Shown piece by piece: positions 4,150-22,403 of a DNA stretch of 64,000 bases. How positions within the stretch are numbered: the first letter of the stretch is position 1; each line of letters opens with the position of its first letter. Under the pieces are notes generated by a model that did no database searches, was not told the DNA's origin, and worked only from the letters and a program-made list of their open reading frames with translations. The position numbers and the translations under genes were made by a program. The stretch comes from Bdellovibrionales bacterium (GTDB lineage: Bacteria > Bdellovibrionota > Bdellovibrionia > Bdellovibrionales > UBA1609): the NCBI GenBank assembly GCA_965199825.1, contig OZ241329.1, positions 2,368,001 to 2,432,000 of the forward strand, written 5' to 3'.

Positions 4150-5694
4150 ATGAAAAGAGTCTCTTTACTTATTTTATTTATCCTAGGTTGCCAACAAAAG
4201 ACCGCTGTGGAATCGGGCAACTCCACCTTTGTGACCAAGGGCTTACCCTCTGTGGTTCAACCACTTGAAGAAAAAGAAGCTGCCACTCTGACTCCAACTT
4301 TCGTGAGCGAAGTAGCAAAGCCCCCAATTCAACCTTCCGCTCAACCTCATGTGACCAAAGAGCCAACAATTTTGGGCCTTACCAATCCAATGATTCTTCC
4401 TCCGCTCGGAAAACAAATTGAAGTGTTTGTCACATTCCAAACCACGGAATCTTCGGTAAGGCTGCACCTCCGTGGTGAGGTCAGCCCCTATCGCAATGGA
4501 CTGTTTGTTGGGGTGCTTTCGGATCCCTCTGAAATTAAAAGTCACCGGGTCAAAGCCATCGCCATCTGTCCAAATTCTATTTGCGATCATGTGATTGTGA
4601 ATCTGCATTACCTTGTGAATAACGAAATCAAAAACTTTCAGACCGAATGGTTTAAAAAAATTGAACCAGTCGAAATGACCGCGCCACCCGAACAGTCACC
4701 TCCAAATATAAATATCGCGGTGAGACCTGAAGAAGATGTGAACGAAGGTTCATTTTCTGAGCCCCCAAAAGGCTCCGTCGAAGAACAGGCCGAGCAGGGC
4801 GGTGGATATGTCTCGCTCGATCCCGAAAAGCTTGAGGGTTTTAAAACCGATTTGTTGCCTTTTACAGCACCTGTTCCAGCCACAATTCCGCACATTGAAA
4901 TTGCCAAAAAACATGAGCCTCCGGTCATCAATCTAAGGCCCGAAGTTGCAAAACCGTTAGATCCGATTCCAATTCCACCCCCGTTTGTTGAACCCCAAAA
5001 AGTGATTCAATCTTTGATTGAGGTCGCAACCAATCTGGTTGAAGGCGGGGAGGCCAGAAATTTTTATTTCAAAGCTGGCCAGATTATGGATGACAGTGTT
5101 TTGCCTGAGTCCGGAGTGGGCTTTGTTAAAACCACTCTTGAGCGCGATCGAAGGTATGGTTCAGGGTTGCTGGTTCAATTGATCATCGATTCGGCCAAAG
5201 CCTTTCGCACAGAGACCACCTATTCAGATAATGAATTATGGATTAGTGATATCTCGCAAAAAGGTGGCGGCGATATGCACCGCAGGGACTCGAGCAATCG
5301 TTTGATTAAGAATGATGCCCACCAAAATGGTTTAGATGTGGATATCGCTTATCTCAACCAAAATCCAAACTTTAATTTCCAGGTTGTGAATAATCAGGTG
5401 CTTCCCAATTTTGATTTTAAAAGGAATTTTGAATTTATGCGGCTGCTTGTAAAAACCAAAATGGTTGGATCTATTTTTGTCGATCCGCGTATCAAAAAGG
5501 GATTTTGTGGCTGGTTCAAACGAGAAATCCAAAATCCAACCGAGCTTGATCATGAAGTTCTAGAGCGAATGTATCATGTCGAGGGGCATACCAATCACTT
5601 TCATGTTCGGCTCAAATGCTCGCCAAATTATATCTTATGTGTGCCGCAAGGATTGAATGGCGATGGTCTTTTAAATAAAACCCCATGTAACTGA
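4150..5694 (+). CDS. Lipoprotein with C-terminal MepA-type penicillin-insensitive murein endopeptidase domain
   Basis: Lipobox ILGC; Pro-rich linker; HQNGLDVD and HTNHFHVRLKC zinc motifs of MepA family. Confidence 0.8.
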   Translation: MKRVSLLILFILGCQQKTAVESGNSTFVTKGLPSVVQPLEEKEAATLTPTFVSEVAKPPIQPSAQPHVTKEPTILGLTNPMILPPLGKQIEVFVTFQTTESSVRLHLRGEVSPYRNGLFVGVLSDPSEIKSHRVKAIAICPNSICDHVIVNLHYLVNNEIKNFQTEWFKKIEPVEMTAPPEQSPPNINIAVRPEEDVNEGSFSEPPKGSVEEQAEQGGGYVSLDPEKLEGFKTDLLPFTAPVPATIPHIEIAKKHEPPVINLRPEVAKPLDPIPIPPPFVEPQKVIQSLIEVATNLVEGGEARNFYFKAGQIMDDSVLPESGVGFVKTTLERDRRYGSGLLVQLIIDSAKAFRTETTYSDNELWISDISQKGGGDMHRRDSSNRLIKNDAHQNGLDVDIAYLNQNPNFNFQVVNNQVLPNFDFKRNFEFMRLLVKTKMVGSIFVDPRIKKGFCGWFKREIQNPTELDHEVLERMYHVEGHTNHFHVRLKCSPNYILCVPQGLNGDGLLNKTPCN

Positions 5695-5718
5695 AACATA
5701 ATATAACTTATAAACAAA
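5691..5718 (-). other. dif-like XerC/XerD recombination site
   Basis: Minus strand TTTGTTTATAA-GTTATA-TTATGTTTCAG keeps the ATAA-N6-TTATGT core of E. coli dif (GGTGCGCATAA-TGTATA-TTATGTTAAAT); almost entirely intergenic. Confidence 0.55.
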
Positions 5719-12537: not shown

Positions 12538-13026
12538 TCAAGATTTAAATTTTAATGCGAAACACAAAATCAACAAAACGGTGTAAAGCGCAAATGCTAT
12601 TTTCCCGCGCTGGACCGATTTCTTGAGATGCTTCAATTCAGTTTCGAATTGATCACGCTGGATTTTGAAGTCTTCATTTAAATGAGTTTTTACCGGATTG
12701 GCCACGCTCATATTGTGATGTGGGTCAAAGACCGGGTACTTGTCGATCACGATCAAATACCACTGAAGCGCCTTATATATATGGGGTGGAATTTTAGACT
12801 CATCCTTCATCCAGCGCGTCCATGCCGAGGGATCAATCAACAAAATCTGACACATTTTTCTGCGACTGATTGAGAGTCGTTCGCGAACCGAATCCAGTGT
12901 GCCCATTTCCTTTCGTAAGACCCGAGCTTCAGCTTCATATTTTAATCTCAGCGAAGTTTTGAGCCGATTTTGGTTTGAATCTGCTTGTGAAGACTCGTCT
13001 TTGGTCGGAATGAAATCCATTTCCAT
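12538..13026 (-). CDS. Hypothetical protein: XRE/Cro-like HTH, coiled coil, C-terminal TM anchor
   Basis: LDSVRERLSISRRKMCQILLIDPSAWTRW fits an HTH; C-terminal hydrophobic IAFALYTVLLILCFAL; GAGGA SD. Confidence 0.65.
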   Translation of the reverse strand: MEMDFIPTKDESSQADSNQNRLKTSLRLKYEAEARVLRKEMGTLDSVRERLSISRRKMCQILLIDPSAWTRWMKDESKIPPHIYKALQWYLIVIDKYPVFDPHHNMSVANPVKTHLNEDFKIQRDQFETELKHLKKSVQRGKIAFALYTVLLILCFALKFKS

Positions 13027-13037
13027 TCGTTATCCTC

Positions 13038-13086
13038 GTTGTGAAACACAATGTTGATGTTGTGATTCACTTTAAATCAAGTTGTG
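13038..13086. repeat. Three phased GTTGTG direct repeats
   Basis: GTTGTG at 13038, 13059, 13081 (spacing 21 and 22 bp); first overlaps palindrome TTGTG-AAA-CACAA. Confidence 0.5.
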
Positions 13087-13181
13087 TAATACCATTGTTC
13101 ACATATTCGATTTTAAATTACAAATTTTTATATTTTTATGAAGTTTGACCCCTATGTGGACCTTGCCTAGTTTCGAAATCG

Positions 13182-13209
13182 AGTGTAACTTATATACATA
13201 AGTTACATA
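13182..13209. repeat. Palindromic site (recombination core or operator)
   Basis: AGTGTAACTTA-TATACA-TAAGTTACATA; perfect 10-bp IR TGTAACTTAT/ATAAGTTACA at 13184-13207. Confidence 0.75.
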
Positions 13210-13347
13210 GCTAAGTATCTGAAATCACATAGGTTTAGGAAGGGTGCTTGTGATCTTTTAATATTGGTTACAGCTCTTGGGGGTCCAAACGCGATGTATA
13301 ACAACAAATTCTATTTAGTTAAAAATCACTCGTGAGGTTGATGCAAC

Positions 13348-13875
13348 ATGGCTAGAATTCAGCGCTACGCTTTAAATAAAAATAAGTATCTGCTCGAAAC
13401 CGAGCGCGAACGGCTCGAATATCTTCTCAAATCTCGGCTCATTTCTGATGCACGAAACTGCTCGCTTTTGCTCACGGGTCTTCATACAGGTGCCCGCGCA
13501 CTCGAAATTTTAAATCTGAAATGGGACGACTTAAATCTCAATGACGAAACTGTTTTTATCCGCGGAATTAAAAATTCCAATGATCGAGAAATTCCTTTAC
13601 CCCGTTGGTTTTTTCGCGATTTACAAAAGATAGAACGTCACAATGAAATGATCTTTCCGATCTCTTACAATCGGCTGCGACAGATCTGGCATCTTTATCG
13701 GCCGGTTCATAAAAAGTTTCATTGCCTCCGCCACACCTTTGCCATTCGCCTTTATCAAAAAACAAAAGACATTCGACTTGTTCAAGTGGCGCTGGGTCAC
13801 CGCAGTATTACCAACACCATGATCTATGCGGACTATATTTATTCGCGCGAGGAATTAAGAAAACTAATTCTTTAA
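13348..13875 (+). CDS. Short tyrosine recombinase (catalytic domain only, FimB/FimE-like size)
   Basis: 175 aa with R (TGAR), K (GIK), HCLR, LGH and Y (TMIY) catalytic residues; no N-terminal core-binding domain; GAGG SD. Confidence 0.9.
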   Translation: MARIQRYALNKNKYLLETERERLEYLLKSRLISDARNCSLLLTGLHTGARALEILNLKWDDLNLNDETVFIRGIKNSNDREIPLPRWFFRDLQKIERHNEMIFPISYNRLRQIWHLYRPVHKKFHCLRHTFAIRLYQKTKDIRLVQVALGHRSITNTMIYADYIYSREELRKLIL

Positions 13876-13926
13876 AAACTTTTTCATCATGCTAGACTTT
13901 TTTTGGATCAACGAGGGGGACTACAT

Positions 13927-14613
13927 TTGTTGCGCATTTTTTTAAAGCTGAGCATCTTGGGTTTTATCTTTAGCTCTTCGGCCTTTTCGGCCACACCTCA
14001 GATATTTTATGATTTACCAAAAGTGGCTGCGGTCCAAAACCGATCTTACTATCTCAATCACGAGTTTGCTCTGCAGCTTGGAACTCTTCCATCAGATGCC
14101 TTTAATAAGGGATATTTGCTAGGCGGAGTTTATACCTATTATTTTAGTGAATATCTCGGCTGGGAAGTGGCAAACGCCAATTATTCGGTCAATGCCGAAA
14201 CCAGCCTGAAGCGAGATCTGGTGGATAACTTTGGAGCTCAAGTTCAGAGCCAAGGATTTGGTGGAGTTCTTGATTACATCACTTACTTTGTAACAACAAA
14301 TTTAGTTTATACTCCTTTTTATACCAAGAGCTTGCTGTTTAATCGCAGTGTGATCCATGGGGAGCTTAGCTTTATTGCGGGTGCCGGTGCGGCCAATTTT
14401 AAAAATACCGGAATTAAACCCTTGGTCTCGCTGGGTGTAGGACTAAGATTTTTTACCTCCCCTTCGCACTCGATCAAACTTGATTTAAGAAACAATGTTT
14501 ACTTTGAAAGCTCGCTCGGTGCGGTCAATGCACTTTCAATCACCGCGGGCTATGCGTGGCAGTTAGGAAAACCACCTTTAAAACCACTCCAGATTGAAGG
14601 TGAAAATGAGTAG
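13927..14613 (+). CDS. Outer-membrane beta-barrel protein, GltA/B/H-like
   Basis: Signal peptide, AVQNR motif, alternating beta-strand pattern; first gene of Glt-like cluster; SD GAGGGGG at 13913 favours TTG 13927/13930 over 13903. Confidence 0.7.
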   Translation: MLRIFLKLSILGFIFSSSAFSATPQIFYDLPKVAAVQNRSYYLNHEFALQLGTLPSDAFNKGYLLGGVYTYYFSEYLGWEVANANYSVNAETSLKRDLVDNFGAQVQSQGFGGVLDYITYFVTTNLVYTPFYTKSLLFNRSVIHGELSFIAGAGAANFKNTGIKPLVSLGVGLRFFTSPSHSIKLDLRNNVYFESSLGAVNALSITAGYAWQLGKPPLKPLQIEGENE

Positions 14614-16108
14614 CCTCTTTTTTTTATTTATGAGCCTTTTGAGTGCTGAGCCACAAAGTGGAAAAACCACCGATATTGCCTTTATTCGTGATCGACCAAA
14701 ACCCTTTACTTATCGTCCGGTTAATAACCGCTATTGGGAGCGCGTTCAAACTCACCTCAAAGAAAACAATCCTCTTTTTATTTTGCAAGAAGCGCACGAG
14801 CAACAAAAGACCTATGGATTTACCTCGACTGAGAGCCAAGAATCTCATTTGGCTGAAGCGATTGGTCTTAAAAAACTCTCTTTTTCTTATGCCTCATTTG
14901 TTATTCTCCTCAATCTCGCCCAAACAAAAATGGGAACCAATATTGGCGAGGCCGCACTTTTTGAACTTGAAGATTTAGCCCTTCATTATTCAATAGATGA
15001 ATCTCAACTCGAGTCTTTTTTAAATCAGAATGAATTTGCCGACGCCCATCACGATATTGTGAGTTTTATTAACTATTATAAAGGACTTCATAATCTTCGT
15101 TACGGTTATAAAAAATGGGCCGAACCAAGTCTGTCAGGAATTAATCCAGCATCGCCGTGGTCACTTCAACTCAACTACTGGACCGCCATGGGTGAGGTGG
15201 CCCGCGGCCGTATGGACAAAGCCTTTGAGATGCTTAGAACTTTAAATACCTCAGCCAATATTCCACAAAATCTGCAGAATATGGTTAAGCTTCAACTTGC
15301 ACGAATCTATTTTGAAAAAGGACTTTTCCAAGAAGCCGAAAGTTTTTATCAAGATGTTGGCGATATGGGCTTGCGTGAGCATGGCCGAATCCTTTTAGAA
15401 CGAGCATGGACGGCATATTATCTCAAAAATTTTTCGCAAGCCCTAGGGTGGCTCACCGCTTTAAAAAGTTCGACCTTTGATTCTTCCTTAACTCCTGAGC
15501 GCTACATTCTCGAAATGGTGATCTTAAGAGATCTGTGTCACTTTCCTGGAGTCGAAATTGTGGCTAAAGCTTTTGAAAAAAAATTTCGTCATACCTTAAG
15601 TGTGATTCGTAAGCGTGGAAGTCTGCGCGAAGAGCGAACATTATTTTCGATGGCCACATTGAACCGGGACCTCCAACCTCAAGCCAATCTGGTCGATCAA
15701 CTTCGTAAAGAGCGTGATCGATTTCAGCGCGCCGGAATGCAAAAGTTTTTGTTCTTTGATGACGCTTTAGATGAATACAAAAAGCGCGATAAAATTTTAA
15801 CCGCCAATCTTGAGCCACGACTCGAAAATTTCGCACGCAAATCGGCAGAGTCGGTTTTGGATTCCGAAGAGCAAATTCAATTTTTGCAGTATCAAAGTAA
15901 ACTTGATGCTTTGAGAATTATTAAAGCGGATGAAGACCGGGCTTATCGTGCCGAAAAAGTGAGCCATGTGGCATTTCAAAAACTCTACTGGCCGGTCGAA
16001 AAAGAATTTTGGCTTGAAGAGCAAAATGATTATCGCGTTTTGATATCGAGCCGCTGCGGTACTAATGCAACTCCTGAAGATCTTAAACTCGAAAGAAAGT
16101 TTCGCTAA
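14606..16108 (+). CDS. GltC-like TPR protein
   Basis: TPR segments (LARIYFEKG, LERAWTAY), LRDLCHF, C-terminal LYWPVEKEFWLEE..DYRV...SRC resembling GltC. Confidence 0.65.
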   Translation: MSSLFFLFMSLLSAEPQSGKTTDIAFIRDRPKPFTYRPVNNRYWERVQTHLKENNPLFILQEAHEQQKTYGFTSTESQESHLAEAIGLKKLSFSYASFVILLNLAQTKMGTNIGEAALFELEDLALHYSIDESQLESFLNQNEFADAHHDIVSFINYYKGLHNLRYGYKKWAEPSLSGINPASPWSLQLNYWTAMGEVARGRMDKAFEMLRTLNTSANIPQNLQNMVKLQLARIYFEKGLFQEAESFYQDVGDMGLREHGRILLERAWTAYYLKNFSQALGWLTALKSSTFDSSLTPERYILEMVILRDLCHFPGVEIVAKAFEKKFRHTLSVIRKRGSLREERTLFSMATLNRDLQPQANLVDQLRKERDRFQRAGMQKFLFFDDALDEYKKRDKILTANLEPRLENFARKSAESVLDSEEQIQFLQYQSKLDALRIIKADEDRAYRAEKVSHVAFQKLYWPVEKEFWLEEQNDYRVLISSRCGTNATPEDLKLERKFR

Positions 16109-19100
16109 TGATTGCGATCTTATTGTATATCGGCGTTGCCTTTGGGGGCGTGACCCAACAGATGACTCTTGAGCAGATGCGCCGGGATCTTGCAAGAGTC
16201 GATAAAAGTTCGGAAGAAACAAAGGCAAAAATTAAAACGGTGCGTGATGCCCGTTTTTTGCCAGATCTTTATTTTGCCCTTGCCGAATTTTATGTCGAAA
16301 AGGCGCGGTATATGTATTCGATCAAGGTGGCCGAAAATCCTAAAACACCGCTCGATGAAATGGATTTTACCGGCGAGCGCCGCCCAAAACTTCAGGCAAT
16401 TGAAACTTATGATACATTGATTGATAAATTTCCTAAACTTCCTGAGCGCGATAAAGCCATATTTTATAAAGCTCACGAGCTGCGCGAACTCGGCAGGCTT
16501 GATGACATGGTCAAGGTCTACTCGCAGCTCACAAAAGAATATCCTGAAAGCGAGTATTGGGCCGAATCCCAAGTGATTATCGGTGACTATTTTTTTGATG
16601 AAAAAAAAGATCCTGCTTTTGCTAAAGATATTTACCAAAAGATTTTAAAACTTCCACCAGGTCCGTTTACCACGCTTGCCCATTATAAAATCGGTTGGTG
16701 CGATATCAATAGCACCGACTTTAAAAACGCCTTGCTCGAGTTCGAAAAAGTTTTGAATGAAAATAAAGATGCCGACCTTACAAAGCTGCCAGAAATTTTT
16801 AGAAAAACCGATGTGCGGCGCGATGCTCTGCTTGCCATGGTTTGGCCTTATTCGGAGTTGTCACAAAAAGATCTTAAAACAATGGGCAACGATGAGCGCA
16901 TGAATGCGCTGACCTATTTTTATTCTCTCTCACCTGATCCTGCGAGTTACGAAAAAGTTTTGTCGCGTCTCGGTCGGCGTCTTGCTCTTAAGCTTCGGAT
17001 GATCGAAACCACCCAAGTTTATTTTGAGCTCTTAAGAATCACCCAAGATATTGAAACTCGAATGGATGTGGTCGAGCGACTGTATGTTTCGATGAAGAAT
17101 TCGCAAAAACCCTGGCCGGTTCACGGGCTTGTTCAAGAAATTGCTAAAACTCTGCCCCAGATCAAAGCCTCATCGACTTTAAAAGAAGGGGTAAAGAAAA
17201 AAGCGATCAACGATTGGGAGATCTTTGCTCGTGACGTTGCCACTCGCTCACAAAAAAGAGCTAAGGAAACCCGCGAGCAGCTCGATTGGGATTGGACCAT
17301 TCGAGATTACAACGCCTATTTGTCGGCATTTCCTGAATCAAAATTTGCCTCGACCTTGAAATTGAATTTGGCTGAAAGTTATTTTGCAAATCATCAGCAA
17401 GTCAAAGCGGCTCGCACCTACGAAGAGATTGCGCGTGAGACAAAGGATAAAGAAAAACATAAAGAGTATTTGGACTCTGCAATTCAGTCGTATATCGCAG
17501 CCCTTCGGGATCAATCCCATTTGAGTCGGCTTGAATTGACCGAAGTCCGGTTTGGTTTGCGCGACGTAGGCCAAGACTTTATCAAGCTCAATCCCAACGA
17601 CAAAGCCGCACAAGATATTCAACTCAACATCGCACAGACTTACTATGATGAGCGCGATTTTGATAAAGCGGTTCAAGGATTTAAATTATTTTTAAAAAAT
17701 TACCCCCAAAGCCCCCAAGTCTCGGTGGCGGCAAATCTTATTCTTGATTCCTACAATCAACGCGAAGACTACAAAGGAATTGTGCGCGAAGGTCGTGAGC
17801 TTTTAAAAACTCCGGCGGTTAAAGATCCCGCACTCAAAACCCAAATTTCACAAATCGTTGAGCAAGCCGAAATGCGAGCGGTACAAAAAGCGGCAGGAGA
17901 ATTTGGCTCGGCCAATTACGCTGCGAATTTGATGAATTTAGCTAACAAATACAAAGGCTCATCGCTTGGAGATCAAGCACTTTATGAAGCCTTTGTTGCT
18001 CTGAGAGCCAAGAAAGATCCTAAGTTTTATGAGTCTGGGGAGCAGCTTTTACTTCAGCACTCGACTTCAAAATATGCCCAAGAAGTTGCAACCAGCATGG
18101 GCCAAATGGCGCTGACCACTGCCGATTTTAGACGAGCTGCACTTTATTTTGAGCTTTATTATGATCGCTACTCTTCAAAGCCCGAAGCCAAAGAATTCCT
18201 CACCAATGCGGCAAAAATTCGTGAGCTCTTGGGCGATTTTAAAGTGGCGGGGCGTGACAACGAAAAATTGAATCAAGGCGATGCGGTCGCAAAACAAGAT
18301 TTTTTAGCCCAAGACTGGACCGCACTTTTGAGATCCGCGGCCAAGGCTCAAGGTATTAATGTGCCCTATTATGAGGGGCTTGCACAATATCGTTTACGCG
18401 GTGTCGGACCGGCGAGACCATCGCTGGAGCAAGCGGCCAGCAACCAGTCCAAAGATTTTTCGGATCAAGAAAAAGCGGCCCATGCACTTTATCTTTTATC
18501 GATGGGTGCGATGACCTCATATAAACAAATTCAATTGAAGGCCGGAAACGAAAGTAAAATCGTTCAAGAAAAAGCGGGAGCCTTAAAAGATCTCGAATCG
18601 AATCTTAAAAAGGTGATCGCTTTTGGTAATGGTCGCTGGACTATCGCAGCACTCTATGGACTGGGCCAAGCCAATAAAGAATTTGCCCAGTTTATTCGGA
18701 GCGCTCCACTGCCCCAGGGGCTCAGTGCGGATCAACAAAAGCAGTTTCACCAGGCGCTAGAAAAACAAGCCCAGACCTATGATCAAAACACCAAAACTTA
18801 CTTTAATGATTGCGTGAACAATGCCGAAAAATTTGAGGTTTTTACCCGTTTTGCCCTGGGTTGTCAGAGTGGGGGGCAACTTGTAGTTGATGAGGCCAAG
18901 GAGGTTCAGACCGTGGCTCATGCTCAAGAAAAAGATCCTGCTGGTGTGACCGAAGTGAGAAAACAATTGTTTGATCAACCCCGAAATTTAAATTTGTTGA
19001 TTAAGCTTTCAGATATTTATTTAAAAAACCAAGACTATGCGATGACCGAACTGATTTTAAACCGGGCTCAAGATATTGAACCCGAAAATTCTCAAATTCC

Positions 19101-19329
19101 TGCGCGCATTGGTATAGTAAAATTATTTAAAAATGAATTGATGGATGCAAAAGTCTGGTTTGATAAAGCGTTGAGTAAAAACCCAAAAGAAAAATATGCA
19201 CTTTGGGGTCTAGCCGGACTCTATCACCAGTTTCATTTTAAAAAACGTTATGATCAAGTGGCTTCACAAGCTCGTGCTGTCGGACTTCCGTCGGGTCCGA
19301 TTCATCCGTTTGTTGATCACGCATTTTAG
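16108..19329 (+). CDS. GltD (AgmU)-like large TPR protein with extra C-terminal TPRs
   Basis: 1073 aa, signal peptide, many TPRs, WTIAALYGLG...FIRSAPLPQGL segment as recalled for GltD; TAATG coupling to upstream gene. Confidence 0.7.
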   Translation: MIAILLYIGVAFGGVTQQMTLEQMRRDLARVDKSSEETKAKIKTVRDARFLPDLYFALAEFYVEKARYMYSIKVAENPKTPLDEMDFTGERRPKLQAIETYDTLIDKFPKLPERDKAIFYKAHELRELGRLDDMVKVYSQLTKEYPESEYWAESQVIIGDYFFDEKKDPAFAKDIYQKILKLPPGPFTTLAHYKIGWCDINSTDFKNALLEFEKVLNENKDADLTKLPEIFRKTDVRRDALLAMVWPYSELSQKDLKTMGNDERMNALTYFYSLSPDPASYEKVLSRLGRRLALKLRMIETTQVYFELLRITQDIETRMDVVERLYVSMKNSQKPWPVHGLVQEIAKTLPQIKASSTLKEGVKKKAINDWEIFARDVATRSQKRAKETREQLDWDWTIRDYNAYLSAFPESKFASTLKLNLAESYFANHQQVKAARTYEEIARETKDKEKHKEYLDSAIQSYIAALRDQSHLSRLELTEVRFGLRDVGQDFIKLNPNDKAAQDIQLNIAQTYYDERDFDKAVQGFKLFLKNYPQSPQVSVAANLILDSYNQREDYKGIVREGRELLKTPAVKDPALKTQISQIVEQAEMRAVQKAAGEFGSANYAANLMNLANKYKGSSLGDQALYEAFVALRAKKDPKFYESGEQLLLQHSTSKYAQEVATSMGQMALTTADFRRAALYFELYYDRYSSKPEAKEFLTNAAKIRELLGDFKVAGRDNEKLNQGDAVAKQDFLAQDWTALLRSAAKAQGINVPYYEGLAQYRLRGVGPARPSLEQAASNQSKDFSDQEKAAHALYLLSMGAMTSYKQIQLKAGNESKIVQEKAGALKDLESNLKKVIAFGNGRWTIAALYGLGQANKEFAQFIRSAPLPQGLSADQQKQFHQALEKQAQTYDQNTKTYFNDCVNNAEKFEVFTRFALGCQSGGQLVVDEAKEVQTVAHAQEKDPAGVTEVRKQLFDQPRNLNLLIKLSDIYLKNQDYAMTELILNRAQDIEPENSQIPARIGIVKLFKNELMDAKVWFDKALSKNPKEKYALWGLAGLYHQFHFKKRYDQVASQARAVGLPSGPIHPFVDHAF

Positions 19330-19358
19330 AATATGAAATCAGCTGCCGATAGTTTGAG

Positions 19359-21233
19359 GTGGGCGCAATTAAACAAAGTAATCAGAGCCGAGTTTCATTA
19401 AAAATCACCGATGGCAACGGCGTCATCTTTGAGCGAATATTTTCGCAATTTCCAATTCATATTGGGCGCTCCACCAATTGTGAAGTTCCACTTCCGCAGT
19501 TCAACTGGATTTCTCGTCAGCACTTAAAAATCGATATGGAAGACGGACAGCTCTATTGCTACGAGCTCAGCGTGAACAATGGTTTAAAGGTGAACAACAC
19601 TTTACAAAAAAAAGTGCCTCTCACCGAAAATCTTGTATTAGAATTGCTCTCGATTCGTCTTTACATTCATTTTCCAAAAGCAAACGAAATGACCCAAAGC
19701 TCGCTCTCCGTCGTCAGCTCTGAAGATGCAACTGTGATTGAAGCATTCGTGCCCCAAAAGCATGAGCATCATGGTTTTTTAAGACCCACGATTTCGGGTG
19801 GACTTGAGGCCTTAAATCTTTCGGCCCCTTTCCCCTCGGTTGATCGCTTGGCCCGCAACCGTCGAGTGCTCGAAGCGTTTGTGACCTGGAAGGGTCAACT
19901 TGTTGATAGTAAACTGTGCCGCGCCGGCGGAAACTTGCGAGTCGGGCGCACCAGAGAATCTTTATATGTTCCAACTTTGTCGCGCACTTTTGAAATTGCC
20001 AGCTATGACGGAAATTTTGGCGAGTGTTTACTGCCTGAAAAAGCAAATGGATTTCTATATTCAACCAATGATAGAAAAACTGCTCTTCAAGATCTAATAA
20101 AGGGACAAGCCCTAAATAAAAAAGGTCGACAGTACGCCCTTCGTTTAATGCCTCTTGATGTGTGTCAGCTCAATATGGGCCATGACATCCAACTTTATCT
20201 TCGCTACGCCCCTGCTCCACGTCAGCTTTCAAAAAAGGGTTTAACCGAACCCGATGAGTTGCTCCAAAAAGCGGGATTATTTTCTGGATTATTTCATCTT
20301 TTGTTTTTGCTCTTGGTGGTCTTTATTGGACCCCAACAGCATGTATTAAAAGTTAAAAATTTGTCGCCCCGGATTGCAAAACTGATTGTGACAAAACCAA
20401 AACCTCCTGAGCCTCCACCACCTGAAGAAAAAAAACCTGAACCTCCAAAGGTTGCAGAACAAAAACCAAAGCCCGAGAAAGTTCCCAAAAAAGTTCAGCC
20501 CAAACCTAAACAAGTTGTGGTTAAGACAAGCCCTGATTTGAAAAAAATCAATAAGCTTCCGGTTCATGTGAAAGAACAAGCGGATGCGACGGCTCCTACA
20601 AAAATGCCAGAAAAAAATGTTGAAGCTCTCGGCGCACTCGCAGCACTTGGTGCACTGGGCGCACCGACTCCCACAGCAAAAGATCAAGCGGTGTCGATCA
20701 ACGTCAACGCCAATGCAGGCGGCGCAAGTTCACTTTCAACAACCGGTGTGATTGGTACTCTTAAATCCAAAGGCGGCAAACTTGAAGCTGGCGGATTAGC
20801 TGGAGTTAAAACTACAGGCAAAGGTTTTGGAACAGGAACAGGTTACGGAGTTCAAGGTCTACAAGGTCGCGCTGGTGCTCGAGGAGTTCAAGGCTCAGTG
20901 ATTGGTACACCATCACTCATGAAATTGAGCGGCAGTGAAGGTCTCACACAAAAAGAAGTGATGGACGTTGTTAAAAAATATGCCGGAAAAATTCAGCAAT
21001 GTTATGAGCGAGCTCTCTTAGCCGAGACCGGCCTTGCAGGACGAATTGAGTATCAATGGTCAATCACACCAAAAGGTGTCGTGACCGATGCGAGTGTGAA
21101 GCGCTCGGATATGAAAAATGCCGATCAACTCAACGAATGTGTTTTGACTGTGTTTAAAGGGATGAAGTTTCCTCCTGCTAAAAACGGTCAAGGAACAACA
21201 CCAAGCATTGGATTCCCATTCGGCCGCATGTAG
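19359..21233 (+). CDS. GltG-like protein: FHA domain, TM, Pro/Gly-rich linker, TonB-C-like (AgmX/PglI C-terminal) domain
   Basis: FHA motifs IGRS, ISRQH, NG; one TM; PPEPPPPEE linker; IQQCYERAL...CVLTVFKGMKFP C-terminus. Confidence 0.8.
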   Translation: MGAIKQSNQSRVSLKITDGNGVIFERIFSQFPIHIGRSTNCEVPLPQFNWISRQHLKIDMEDGQLYCYELSVNNGLKVNNTLQKKVPLTENLVLELLSIRLYIHFPKANEMTQSSLSVVSSEDATVIEAFVPQKHEHHGFLRPTISGGLEALNLSAPFPSVDRLARNRRVLEAFVTWKGQLVDSKLCRAGGNLRVGRTRESLYVPTLSRTFEIASYDGNFGECLLPEKANGFLYSTNDRKTALQDLIKGQALNKKGRQYALRLMPLDVCQLNMGHDIQLYLRYAPAPRQLSKKGLTEPDELLQKAGLFSGLFHLLFLLLVVFIGPQQHVLKVKNLSPRIAKLIVTKPKPPEPPPPEEKKPEPPKVAEQKPKPEKVPKKVQPKPKQVVVKTSPDLKKINKLPVHVKEQADATAPTKMPEKNVEALGALAALGALGAPTPTAKDQAVSINVNANAGGASSLSTTGVIGTLKSKGGKLEAGGLAGVKTTGKGFGTGTGYGVQGLQGRAGARGVQGSVIGTPSLMKLSGSEGLTQKEVMDVVKKYAGKIQQCYERALLAETGLAGRIEYQWSITPKGVVTDASVKRSDMKNADQLNECVLTVFKGMKFPPAKNGQGTTPSIGFPFGRM

Positions 21234-21317
21234 GCCGAGCCCCACTTAAGTCGAGTTCTTTTTTGTCAGCTACTCACAATCCCCTTTGCTTGCTTAAATA
21301 GTTTCGAGGGGTAACAC

Positions 21318-21968
21318 ATGCTTCATACATTGCTCGAACATTATCGCGAAGGTGGCTTTTTTATGCACGTAATCTTAGGCACATCGGCCTTAGGTTTTGT
21401 GATCGTCATCGAGCGCTTTATTATAATCAATCAAGCCTCTTCGGTAAGAAAAGAAGAGCTTCTCAATCACGTCAACTCCTACATTCTTCAAGGTCATCTT
21501 GATAAAGCAATCGCGGTCACTTCACAGGTTCGAAATCCTCTCACCAATATTGTTCGGGCCGGACTTCAGGCGGTAGCTAACAACGGCGGAACAGAAGAGG
21601 TCCAGACTGCGATGGATGCGGTCGCATTAAGAGAAATTCCGCGGATCGAGCGACGAGTGGGTTTACTCTCCATGCTATCAAACGTTGCAACTCTTGTGGG
21701 ATTACTCGGAACGGTGACCGGGATGATCGGCGCCTTTGCTACGGTTGCTAACGTGTCACCTTCAGAAAAAGCAACGTTATTGGCGAACGCAATTTCTGAA
21801 GCGATGAATTGTACGGCGTTTGGACTTGTTGTTGCGATTCCGCTGCTTGCTGCGTTTGGATGGTTAAATTCAAAAGCTCAAGATACGGTTGATGATATTC
21901 ATGAATCAGCAGTGGCCACATTGAATTTTATTTTGGTTAATCGCGATAAAATTTTAAAAGGAAGATAA
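21318..21968 (+). CDS. aglR: MotA/TolQ/ExbB family proton channel, AglR-like
   Basis: ATLVGLLGTVTGMI and AISEAMNCTAFGL..AIP motifs; context. Confidence 0.8.
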   Translation: MLHTLLEHYREGGFFMHVILGTSALGFVIVIERFIIINQASSVRKEELLNHVNSYILQGHLDKAIAVTSQVRNPLTNIVRAGLQAVANNGGTEEVQTAMDAVALREIPRIERRVGLLSMLSNVATLVGLLGTVTGMIGAFATVANVSPSEKATLLANAISEAMNCTAFGLVVAIPLLAAFGWLNSKAQDTVDDIHESAVATLNFILVNRDKILKGR

Positions 21969-22403
21969 ATGAGCGGCGGCGGCGGAGAGTATGAGTTAAA
22001 CCTTACGTCCTACATCGATTTGATGAGCACATTAATTGTGTTTTTATTAATGACCGCAGTCTGGAATCAAATCTCTGTTTTATCCTCTGATACCGGCGGT
22101 ACCACCGCCTCGGATACTCCCAGTCCCCCAAGTAACAAACCAAAAGTCTCTTTAAGTGTGACAATTTTAAAAGACCAAATGGAAATGACCGAAAATAGCA
22201 GCTCAGTCAAAATTCCACATCAAGGCGATGATCTCGACACTATGAGAATGGTCGGAATTTTAAACCAGTGGAAACAAAAATATCCCGAAAAAAATGATGT
22301 CACATTGAATACCGAAAACTCGGTTTCGTACAAAATGTTGATTCGGGCGTTTGATACATTGGTTGGAAATAATTTTCCTGATGTGGGAGTAAGCACTCAG
22401 TGA
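21969..22403 (+). CDS. aglQ: ExbD/TolR family protein, AglQ-like
   Basis: ELNLTSYIDLMSTLIVFLL TM with conserved Asp; order aglR-Q-S. Confidence 0.7.
   Translation: MSGGGGEYELNLTSYIDLMSTLIVFLLMTAVWNQISVLSSDTGGTTASDTPSPPSNKPKVSLSVTILKDQMEMTENSSSVKIPHQGDDLDTMRMVGILNQWKQKYPEKNDVTLNTENSVSYKMLIRAFDTLVGNNFPDVGVSTQ

Follow-up and report, generated by a model that had tools for sequence, protein, structure and literature searches.

A short segment of a Bdellovibrionales chromosome, studied here within a window of 64,000 nucleotides (the whole stretch of DNA that was analysed), encodes a genuine and conserved module that very likely works as an active system for site-specific recombination, equipped with a site of its own, IHF-like boxes and an accessory protein, as judged from comparison of its sequence with those of relatives. 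It comprises a tyrosine recombinase reduced to the catalytic domain, a divergently oriented partner gene encoding a helix-turn-helix (HTH) protein and a palindromic site between the two genes, all located near the chromosome terminus. In our preferred reading, to which we assign a probability of about 45%, this recombinase would act on sister copies of the site and thereby provide a back-up for XerCD/dif. The module bears on the question of how a predator keeps its chromosome copies apart when replication goes through many rounds in a filament that has not divided. The elements discussed below are located in the window as follows:

5691..5718, minus strand: canonical XerCD-type dif site, the chromosome's own dif, separate from the module
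12538..13026, minus strand: partner HTH gene, 162 aa (XRE-like head, coiled coil, C-terminal membrane helix)
13039..13051, no strand assigned: palindromic box 1, TTGTG-N3-CACAA, with the HTH protein as its likely binder
13060..13072, no strand assigned: palindromic box 2, of the TTGTG-N3-CACAA type
13082..13094, no strand assigned: palindromic box 3, centred 108 bp away from the middle of the core, in the phased class
13171..13179, plus strand: left-flank motif, family consensus TTTCAAA
13182..13209, plus strand: 28-bp core site, 11-6-11, the putative crossover site
13212..13224, plus strand: IHF-like box directly right of the core, one mismatch to YAANNNNTTGAWW
13327..13336, plus strand: motif CACTCGTGAG to the right of the core (consensus CACTCGCGAG), at a distance of about 133 bp that is phased across relatives
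13348..13875, plus strand: catalytic-domain-only tyrosine recombinase, 175 aa (R50, K75, H125, R128, H151, Y160; recognition helix 106-117)

An earlier note on this DNA had described the two open reading frames, the 321-bp AT-rich spacer between them and the absence of adjacent mobile cargo, and all of this was borne out: the frames span 12538-13026 (162 aa) and 13348-13875 (175 aa), the spacer has 33% GC vs 44% for the chromosome, and the flanks are made of housekeeping genes, namely leucine dehydrogenase (ldh), a TPR protein gene and bamB to one side of the module and the gliding-motility glt genes to the other. The gliding-motility (glt/agl-like) operon extends over window positions 13903-22403. 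The same succession of ldh, partner, site, recombinase and glt genes occurs in G136 (family f5) and partially in G204 and G226, hence it may represent the ancestral context. Gene order and orientation within the module are constant in nearly all loci. A promoter scan returned nothing over the chance level.

The recombinase retains the full R-K-H-R-H-Y set of catalytic residues and has no core-binding domain, in both respects as the earlier note had proposed: its only Pfam match is to Phage_integrase (residues 33-162), and the structural model (pLDDT 90) is a bare catalytic domain, whose best fold matches are the catalytic domains of XerH, XerA, P2 and HP1. The R-K-H-R-H pentad, the tyrosine nucleophile and the Int catalytic fold place the protein in the tyrosine recombinase superfamily. 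Simple tyrosine recombinases (the Xer group) are defined, in the accessible part of PMC8138268, by the presence of a core-binding and a catalytic domain, whereas the mini-recombinase lacks the former and falls outside that definition; as that classification reads, the mini-recombinase family does not fit its two groups. Scores obtained with models of known families were far below the respective cut-offs, namely 58 bits vs 330-335 for XerC/XerD, 50 vs 267 for XerS, and 36-39 bits vs 221-222 for FimB/FimE. In 87 complete orthologues, which are 171-197 aa long (with stop-to-stop frames of 176-263 aa), each of the six catalytic residues is retained in 86-87 proteins, i.e. all of them are invariant or nearly so. 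This conservation does not fit a catalytically dead recombinase-fold regulator, and there is a high probability that the host module is an active site-specific recombinase for its own 28-bp site.

Among 301 genomes of the phylum, recombinase orthologues were found in 55 (51-71% identity, E<=1e-50), confined to this order or to one neighbouring lineage of the class, and the partner was found in all of these 55 genomes and in one more. An alignment search detected the recombinase in 213 out of 327 Bdellovibrionales genomes, nearly always in one copy. The module was not found in g14 (0/10, orthologue search), nor in g210 (0/10), g218 (0/14) and g219 (0/4) by the alignment search. The survey of gene neighbourhoods across Bdellovibrionota upheld the proposed linkage of the two genes (55 of the 301 genomes carry the pair) and the conservation of the palindrome (77 of 89 loci); relatives are not independent in any of the counts of the module, here or below.

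The core site at 13182-13209 reads AGTGTAACTTA-TATACA-TAAGTTACATA, with nine of the 11 arm pairs matched. Taken alone, this 11-6-11 palindrome, whose presence in the spacer was also confirmed, is modest, since perfect 9-6-9 repeats occur 38 times on the chromosome (and in four of 300 shuffled spacers), but it is real because it is conserved: a motif with the family consensus ACT-NNNN-CTTA / TAGTTA / TAAG-NNNN-AGT is present within 700 bp upstream of the recombinase in 77 of the 89 non-redundant loci. In nine of the remaining 12 loci the motif lies further off, beside the partner gene, two are cut by contig ends, and one has none. The window copy is a diverged family member with TATACA in the centre, and it is single in this genome, with a score of 25 vs 6.6 for the next best match. 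The centre is non-palindromic in 100 of 105 sites (82 of the 105 have GT and 14 the reverse complement, AC), which fits the need of a directional crossover site; between lineages, the orientation of the centre (TAGTTA vs its reverse complement TAACTA) has changed three times on the tree. Telomere resolvases need a perfectly palindromic centre, in contrast to the asymmetric centres of the module sites, and closed genomes continue through the site; the hairpin-telomere reading was rejected on these grounds. In one locus (L247:2826-2853, G543), a near-copy of the left half-site with its flank is found inside the partner coding region, 303 bp from the real site, possibly as an old duplication or a recombination scar.

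Arm positions 8-11 are variable, yet they pair across the dyad (193 of 268 cells vs 107 +/- 8.5 in shuffled data, for 67 loci under 80% identity). When all 177 variable columns of the recombinase and the HTH protein were taken together, those covarying best with the variable arm bases were recombinase residues 108, 106 and 111 (ranks 1-3), and the best column of the HTH protein ranked sixth. His108 is paired with C at position 11 in 59 of 62 cases (4 and 5 changes on a tree inferred after exclusion of the helix), while the link between residue 111 and position 8 is looser (53/62). The recombinase helix 106-117 aligns with αK of XerH, with an unsure register. According to the accessible part of PMC5241119, αK of XerH enters the major groove of the outer arm, and it is the N-terminal domain that reads the bases of the inner arm; unlike in the XerH logic, the inner arm bases of the module sites are conserved despite the recombinase having no N-terminal domain. 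We infer from these patterns that the palindrome is the putative crossover site of the recombinase itself. A reading of the arms as an RNA or cruciform hairpin was also considered and judged improbable: the arms do pair, but a symmetric protein with a covarying helix accounts for this.

Natural rearrangements bear on the same point. In G323, the site, the IHF box and the three boxes lie 165 bp downstream of the recombinase and the partner gene is 670 kb away, and in G192 the recombinase is lost save for its last 21 codons, and the palindrome is lost too, with the partner, the boxes and the IHF box kept. Both genomes agree in that the palindrome appears to track the recombinase, not the partner gene. 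The idea that the membrane-anchored HTH protein reads the palindrome is not supported, as the arm bases covary with the recombinase helix rather than with the HTH protein, and the site stays with the recombinase where the HTH gene is far off. In G319, of the same genus as G323, a distance of 657 kb separates the recombinase from dif, and a search of about 10 kb around the gene revealed no recognisable site.

The "phased direct repeats" reported previously, with spacings of 21 and 22, are indeed present, but they are in reality three copies of the palindromic box TTGTG-N3-CACAA. Such boxes, usually three and 20-22 bp apart, are found at the start of the partner gene. The distance from the nearest box to the core is 108, 119, 129, 141 or 151 bp in most loci, with a period of 10.5-10.7 (p about 0.0004 for 27 distinct values, with four loci at 44 bp left out and kin not independent), and the right-hand CACTCGCGAG motif is also phased relative to the core. 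Directly right of the core the family exhibits YAANNNNTTGAWW, which we take to be the IHF consensus, and a second IHF-like box is present between the boxes and the core in 21 of 77 loci vs 1.1 in shuffles. In this genome, the IHF alpha gene is above the cut-off and the likely beta gene is below its own. It is more likely that the HTH protein binds the three separate boxes, 108-150 bp from the core, considering their position and their retention with partner genes after core loss. The boxes persist with the HTH gene after loss of the recombinase and the core in G192 and in three of four orphan paralogues, and therefore they may be mainly autoregulatory; in G323, by exception, they remain with the site and not with the partner gene. 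Elsewhere, at G000:C1:1356607, another strong pair of TTGTG-N3-CACAA-like boxes, spaced by 21-23 bp, is a possible further target of the partner.

The partner itself comprises a four-helix XRE-like head, one long helix of 47 residues (115-161) and a hydrophobic C-terminus. It has no match over the cut-off in Pfam, NCBIfam or PHROG, and the XRE-type matches of its head are weak: the Pfam E-value is 0.096, the top fold matches are all XRE proteins but with E>0.6, and the Atlas leads are under 0.8, with XRE given in the source annotation names. A wide fold search of this protein was swamped by its coiled coil. The architecture of HTH, coiled coil and C-terminal transmembrane helix suggested earlier holds for the window protein but not as a universal trait: a membrane helix is present in about 70 of 79 orthologues, and nine of the 79 have a Lys/Arg-rich tail. 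These long tails (L018, L040, L048, L049, L056, L058, L069, L083 and L026), found in place of the membrane helix, are histone-H1-like. Four genomes of this group retain a second, membrane-tailed paralogue without recombinase or site, which in three of the four lies beside ldh.

Recombination at the site is recorded by viral elements. In G436, a 9,381-bp provirus splits the core: the sequence common to attL and attR begins exactly at the hexamer TAGTTA, the element is bounded by a full site and by a half-site with a foreign left arm, and the sister genome G435 has an empty site with the same core-to-gene distance. The element codes for a double-jelly-roll capsid protein, a packaging-type ATPase and a transglycosylase, and its sole recombinase is a mini-recombinase of the same family, of the 190-aa class. 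This provirus (L217:4780-14161, G436:C1) is complete, its host belongs to Bdellovibrionales, and its 18-bp direct repeat, situated inward of the two ends by about 170 and 220 bp, is maybe an arm site. A pattern scan of metagenomes gave eight matches, of which six are host loci and two (L257 and L260) represent one virus, where a second half-site with a foreign left arm, flanked on both sides by phage-like genes, is accompanied by its own mini-recombinase pointing away in the same geometry. Both phage enzymes, which were excluded from the covariation test, obey the code, with His108 opposite a C-type arm and Gln108 opposite A at +11. The accessory boxes sit on the host site and not on the phage arms. 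The phage junctions show that some mini-recombinase, not specifically the host copy, acts on the site, and only one occupied site was encountered among about 100 loci examined.

Related double-jelly-roll proviruses were noted in genus g14 (L311:6400-14900 of G496:C237, and L312 of G468:C154). The syntenic G496 provirus ends in a mini-recombinase and has an XerD-arm-like TTATGTTAAGT near 15090; no site of the module type was found at its end. The strict site pattern gave no matches in viral contigs, and the 37 matches of a loose pattern, none near a family gene, were taken as chance. Family members in tailed phages and prophages (L120-L128, L200, L224-L228, L301-L305) have no matching site or partner nearby; in L121, L224, L225, L226 and L304 the mini-recombinase gene is located just before the packaging genes, and that of L225 is 700 bp from a tRNA-Ser. 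Collections of named phages and plasmids yielded no full-length relative.

A profile search gave 252 clusters at E<=1e-30, the best 150 of which are nearly all 160-200 aa long with intact active sites, and relatives of the mini-recombinase were located in phage contigs and prophages. A rapidly built tree places the host genes as a group with short branches within the radiation of short recombinases, most inner branches of the tree being weak; the host clade has support of 98 and contains 25 rows, two of them phage or unplaced, with two host rows outside. Nesting of the host group in a phage-rich radiation fits domestication, the direction of which is not proven by this tree. With at least 252 clusters of recombinases of about 175 aa devoid of the core-binding domain, natural attB/attP examples and a helix-to-base code, these enzymes would be about the smallest site-specific integrases known.

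As for the position on the chromosome, the GC-skew maximum of the 2.78-Mb contig is 19 kb from the site, and window positions 5696-5711 contain a 16-base match to the Bdellovibrio dif core taken from the accessible part of PMC2731167. The possibility that the palindrome is an ordinary dif was rejected, as the canonical dif (5691-5718) is 7.5 kb away. This dif overlaps the stop codon of a 514-aa ORF at 4150-5694; neither it nor the IHF-like box at 13212-13224 had been named in the earlier note. Two full-length Xer-size recombinases and FtsK are encoded elsewhere in the genome; with XerC, XerD, FtsK and a canonical dif all present, a second system is not demanded. Where the recombinase gene and dif share a contig, they are at most 85 kb apart in 36 of 37 cases (median 13.8 kb), a count that is biased since fragmented assemblies reveal only close pairs and 10 of 13 near-closed genomes represent one genus. 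Besides, the ldh-bamB block adjoins dif also in two g14 genomes, where the module is absent, so its position at the terminus is possibly passive. The KOPS polarity signal had too much noise for placing ter.

The orthologues in Bdellovibrio bacteriovorus are Bd2025 (the recombinase, annotated in its record as a probable phage integrase) and Bd2026 (the partner). The accessible RNA-seq data of PMC3627812 give RPKM values of 54 and 80 for Bd2025 and 42 and 156 for Bd2026, if the columns are taken as attack and growth phase; the recombinase transcript is low. In the accessible Tn-seq data for strain 109J (PMC6561027), with rows assigned to the orthologues by gene order, the W values are 1.2-1.8 and 1.8-2.5, and those of the neighbours are also above 1, so that predation requires neither gene; at most a mild effect is seen for the two remaining recombinase rows as well, hence this screen may be blind to dimer resolution. 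Bd2025 was not found in a predation proteome that lists XerD (search of six of the seven supplement files of PMC12546842), and the accessible part of a Hi-C preprint (10.1101/2025.09.24.678257) contains no mention of Xer or recombinases. For chromosome separation in the predator, the accessible part of a review (PMC11318664) names only xerCD, dif and ftsK, all in silico, and it describes ter as polar in attack-phase cells. No description of the module was found in the full-text literature on Bdellovibrio Xer/tyrosine recombinases, core-binding-less recombinases and Bdellovibrionota prophage attachment, with subscription journals and bioRxiv supplements outside reach.

In comparison with known systems, the module resembles different ones in different respects. 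FimB and FimE are enzymes of catalytic-domain size that depend on IHF, a dependence that we presume for the module as well; unlike theirs, its locus has neither an inverted site pair nor an invertible promoter. TnpS/TnpT of the Tn4651 subgroup are a divergent recombinase and helper with the rst site, composed of a core and accessory repeats, between their genes (PMC7157771, accessible part), and the module has the same layout of a tyrosine recombinase, a divergent helper and a site with accessory repeats between them. However, it is chromosomal, single-copy and flanked by housekeeping genes, without a transposase (TnpA), its recombinase lacks the core-binding domain, and its helper is an XRE-like HTH protein with a membrane tail, likened to TnpT by layout alone. 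XerS/difSL and XerH/difH, as far as PMC5357621 is accessible, each comprise one recombinase adjoining its own site near the terminus, a position and a catalytic fold shared by the module, whose recombinase is 175 aa long vs about 356, coexists with XerC, XerD and canonical dif instead of replacing them, and is accompanied by a partner gene and accessory boxes. At cer and psi, where XerCD acts with PepA and ArgR/ArcA, a core of about 30 bp and about 180 bp of one-sided accessory DNA direct resolution (same source and extent); the module shares the core plus one-sided accessory DNA, but differs in having its own recombinase and accessory protein, IHF-like boxes and a chromosomal position. Small Int-type and dif-type double-jelly-roll prophages of Vibrio use tyrosine recombination, some at the terminus site (PMC12715192, accessible part), whereas the G436 provirus uses the module site instead of dif and has a mini-recombinase of the 190-aa class as its only recombinase. 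In summary of layout, the module is like TnpS/TnpT-rst or cer/psi, and in position like XerS/difSL, and it is a member of none.

How the module would act under the preferred reading can be outlined as follows. Four recombinase subunits would occupy a pair of sites and swap strands over the 6-bp centre, the DNA would be bent by IHF at the box adjoining the core, and HTH-protein dimers on the three boxes could loop back and, together with IHF, substitute for the missing core-binding domain. The HTH protein and IHF would also select the correct pairing of sites, a task that belongs to accessory proteins at cer/psi and to TnpT at rst, and the membrane tail of the HTH protein could anchor the complex to the envelope. 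If driven by accessory factors, the reaction could go ahead before FtsK is available at a septum, and this may be relevant in a filament that has many chromosomes and no septa. Of the auxiliary terminus resolution system proposed in the earlier note, the outline stands (linked genes, a conserved site, terminus position and signs of crossover), and the part that found no support is the HTH-membrane protein as the reader of the palindrome. With one site per chromosome, the usual recombination partner must be a sister copy, and we consider a sister copy as the partner at slightly less than even odds, and incoming viral DNA as a rather unlikely one. A fuller scenario is doubtful as a whole: a phage-type 175-aa integrase would have been domesticated as a septum-free second resolution system, in which the tethered HTH protein and an IHF loop replace the core-binding domain and the sisters in the filament become unlinked ahead of division; enzymes of this minimal kind would also be the integrases of double-jelly-roll viruses, with the target coded by three helix residues.

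Alternatively, the module could be a domesticated phage integrase kept with its attachment site for managing invaders, i.e. for capturing, excising or blocking viruses that use the same site, with sister recombination being incidental. We regard this as unlikely, although two viruses use the site, the host clade is nested in a radiation of short recombinases several of which come from phage contigs or prophages, and no fitness cost is seen in phage-free predation. Unrelated genes separate the site from the recombinase in 12 loci, on the side of the G436 provirus, vs one locus with an insert on the other side; such one-sidedness would follow from viral insertion, but it is also expected from the phasing constraint on the box side, and the 12 inserts carry host-like genes and have no second half-site, the lack of which also led to the rejection of integron-like cassettes. 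The single occupied site among about 100 loci and the presence of elaborate boxes on the host site rather than the phage arms also speak against this alternative. With a lower probability still, the complex may organise the terminus, cutting and rejoining one site without partner exchange so as to relax or unlink the DNA locally, with the HTH protein as the tether between this region and the membrane. Isolated catalytic domains of tyrosine recombinases can act as topoisomerases, and the intact active site, the single site, its terminus position, the membrane tail in about 70 of 79 orthologues and the polar ter of attack-phase cells (PMC11318664, accessible part) would all agree with such a role. 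Nevertheless, the conserved asymmetric centre and the conserved C-terminal helix fit strand exchange by four subunits better, the phage junctions indicate exchange at the site, and the membrane tail is replaced in one clade.

Two regulatory alternatives appear even less probable. The recombinase and the HTH protein could regulate transcription on the spacer as a divergent switch, with catalysis unneeded, as the boxes extend over the beginning of the HTH gene, resembling a repressor array, and IHF boxes are common at promoters; this is improbable in view of the invariant catalytic residues and the phage crossovers, which also make the previously suggested recombinase-fold regulator unlikely, and the site of G323, being downstream of the recombinase gene, cannot be the operator of the latter. 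A phase-variation switch of the FimB/FimE kind, likewise raised before, has hardly any probability left: the proteins are of the same size class, IHF-like boxes are present and the centre reads TAGTTA or TAACTA across lineages, but there is one site per genome without a second, inverted one here, gene order and orientation are near-constant, scores fall short of the Fim cut-offs, and no joints were detected in four public runs of a relative, for which contigs only were compared and rare variants as well as expression are invisible.

For the separation of chromosomes in the undivided filament, the module represents a specific candidate that is tractable in B. bacteriovorus, where Bd2025 and Bd2026 have the site between them. 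Two observations of a different kind were made along with these. In genus g20, the gene found between the site and the recombinase in L104, L106 and L110 encodes a ParB-like nuclease (PF08857). Finally, a perfect palindrome, TTGTTCCACGTGGAACAA, is located at G000:C1:964914-964937, about 7 kb from the GC-skew minimum, and resembles the parS consensus.
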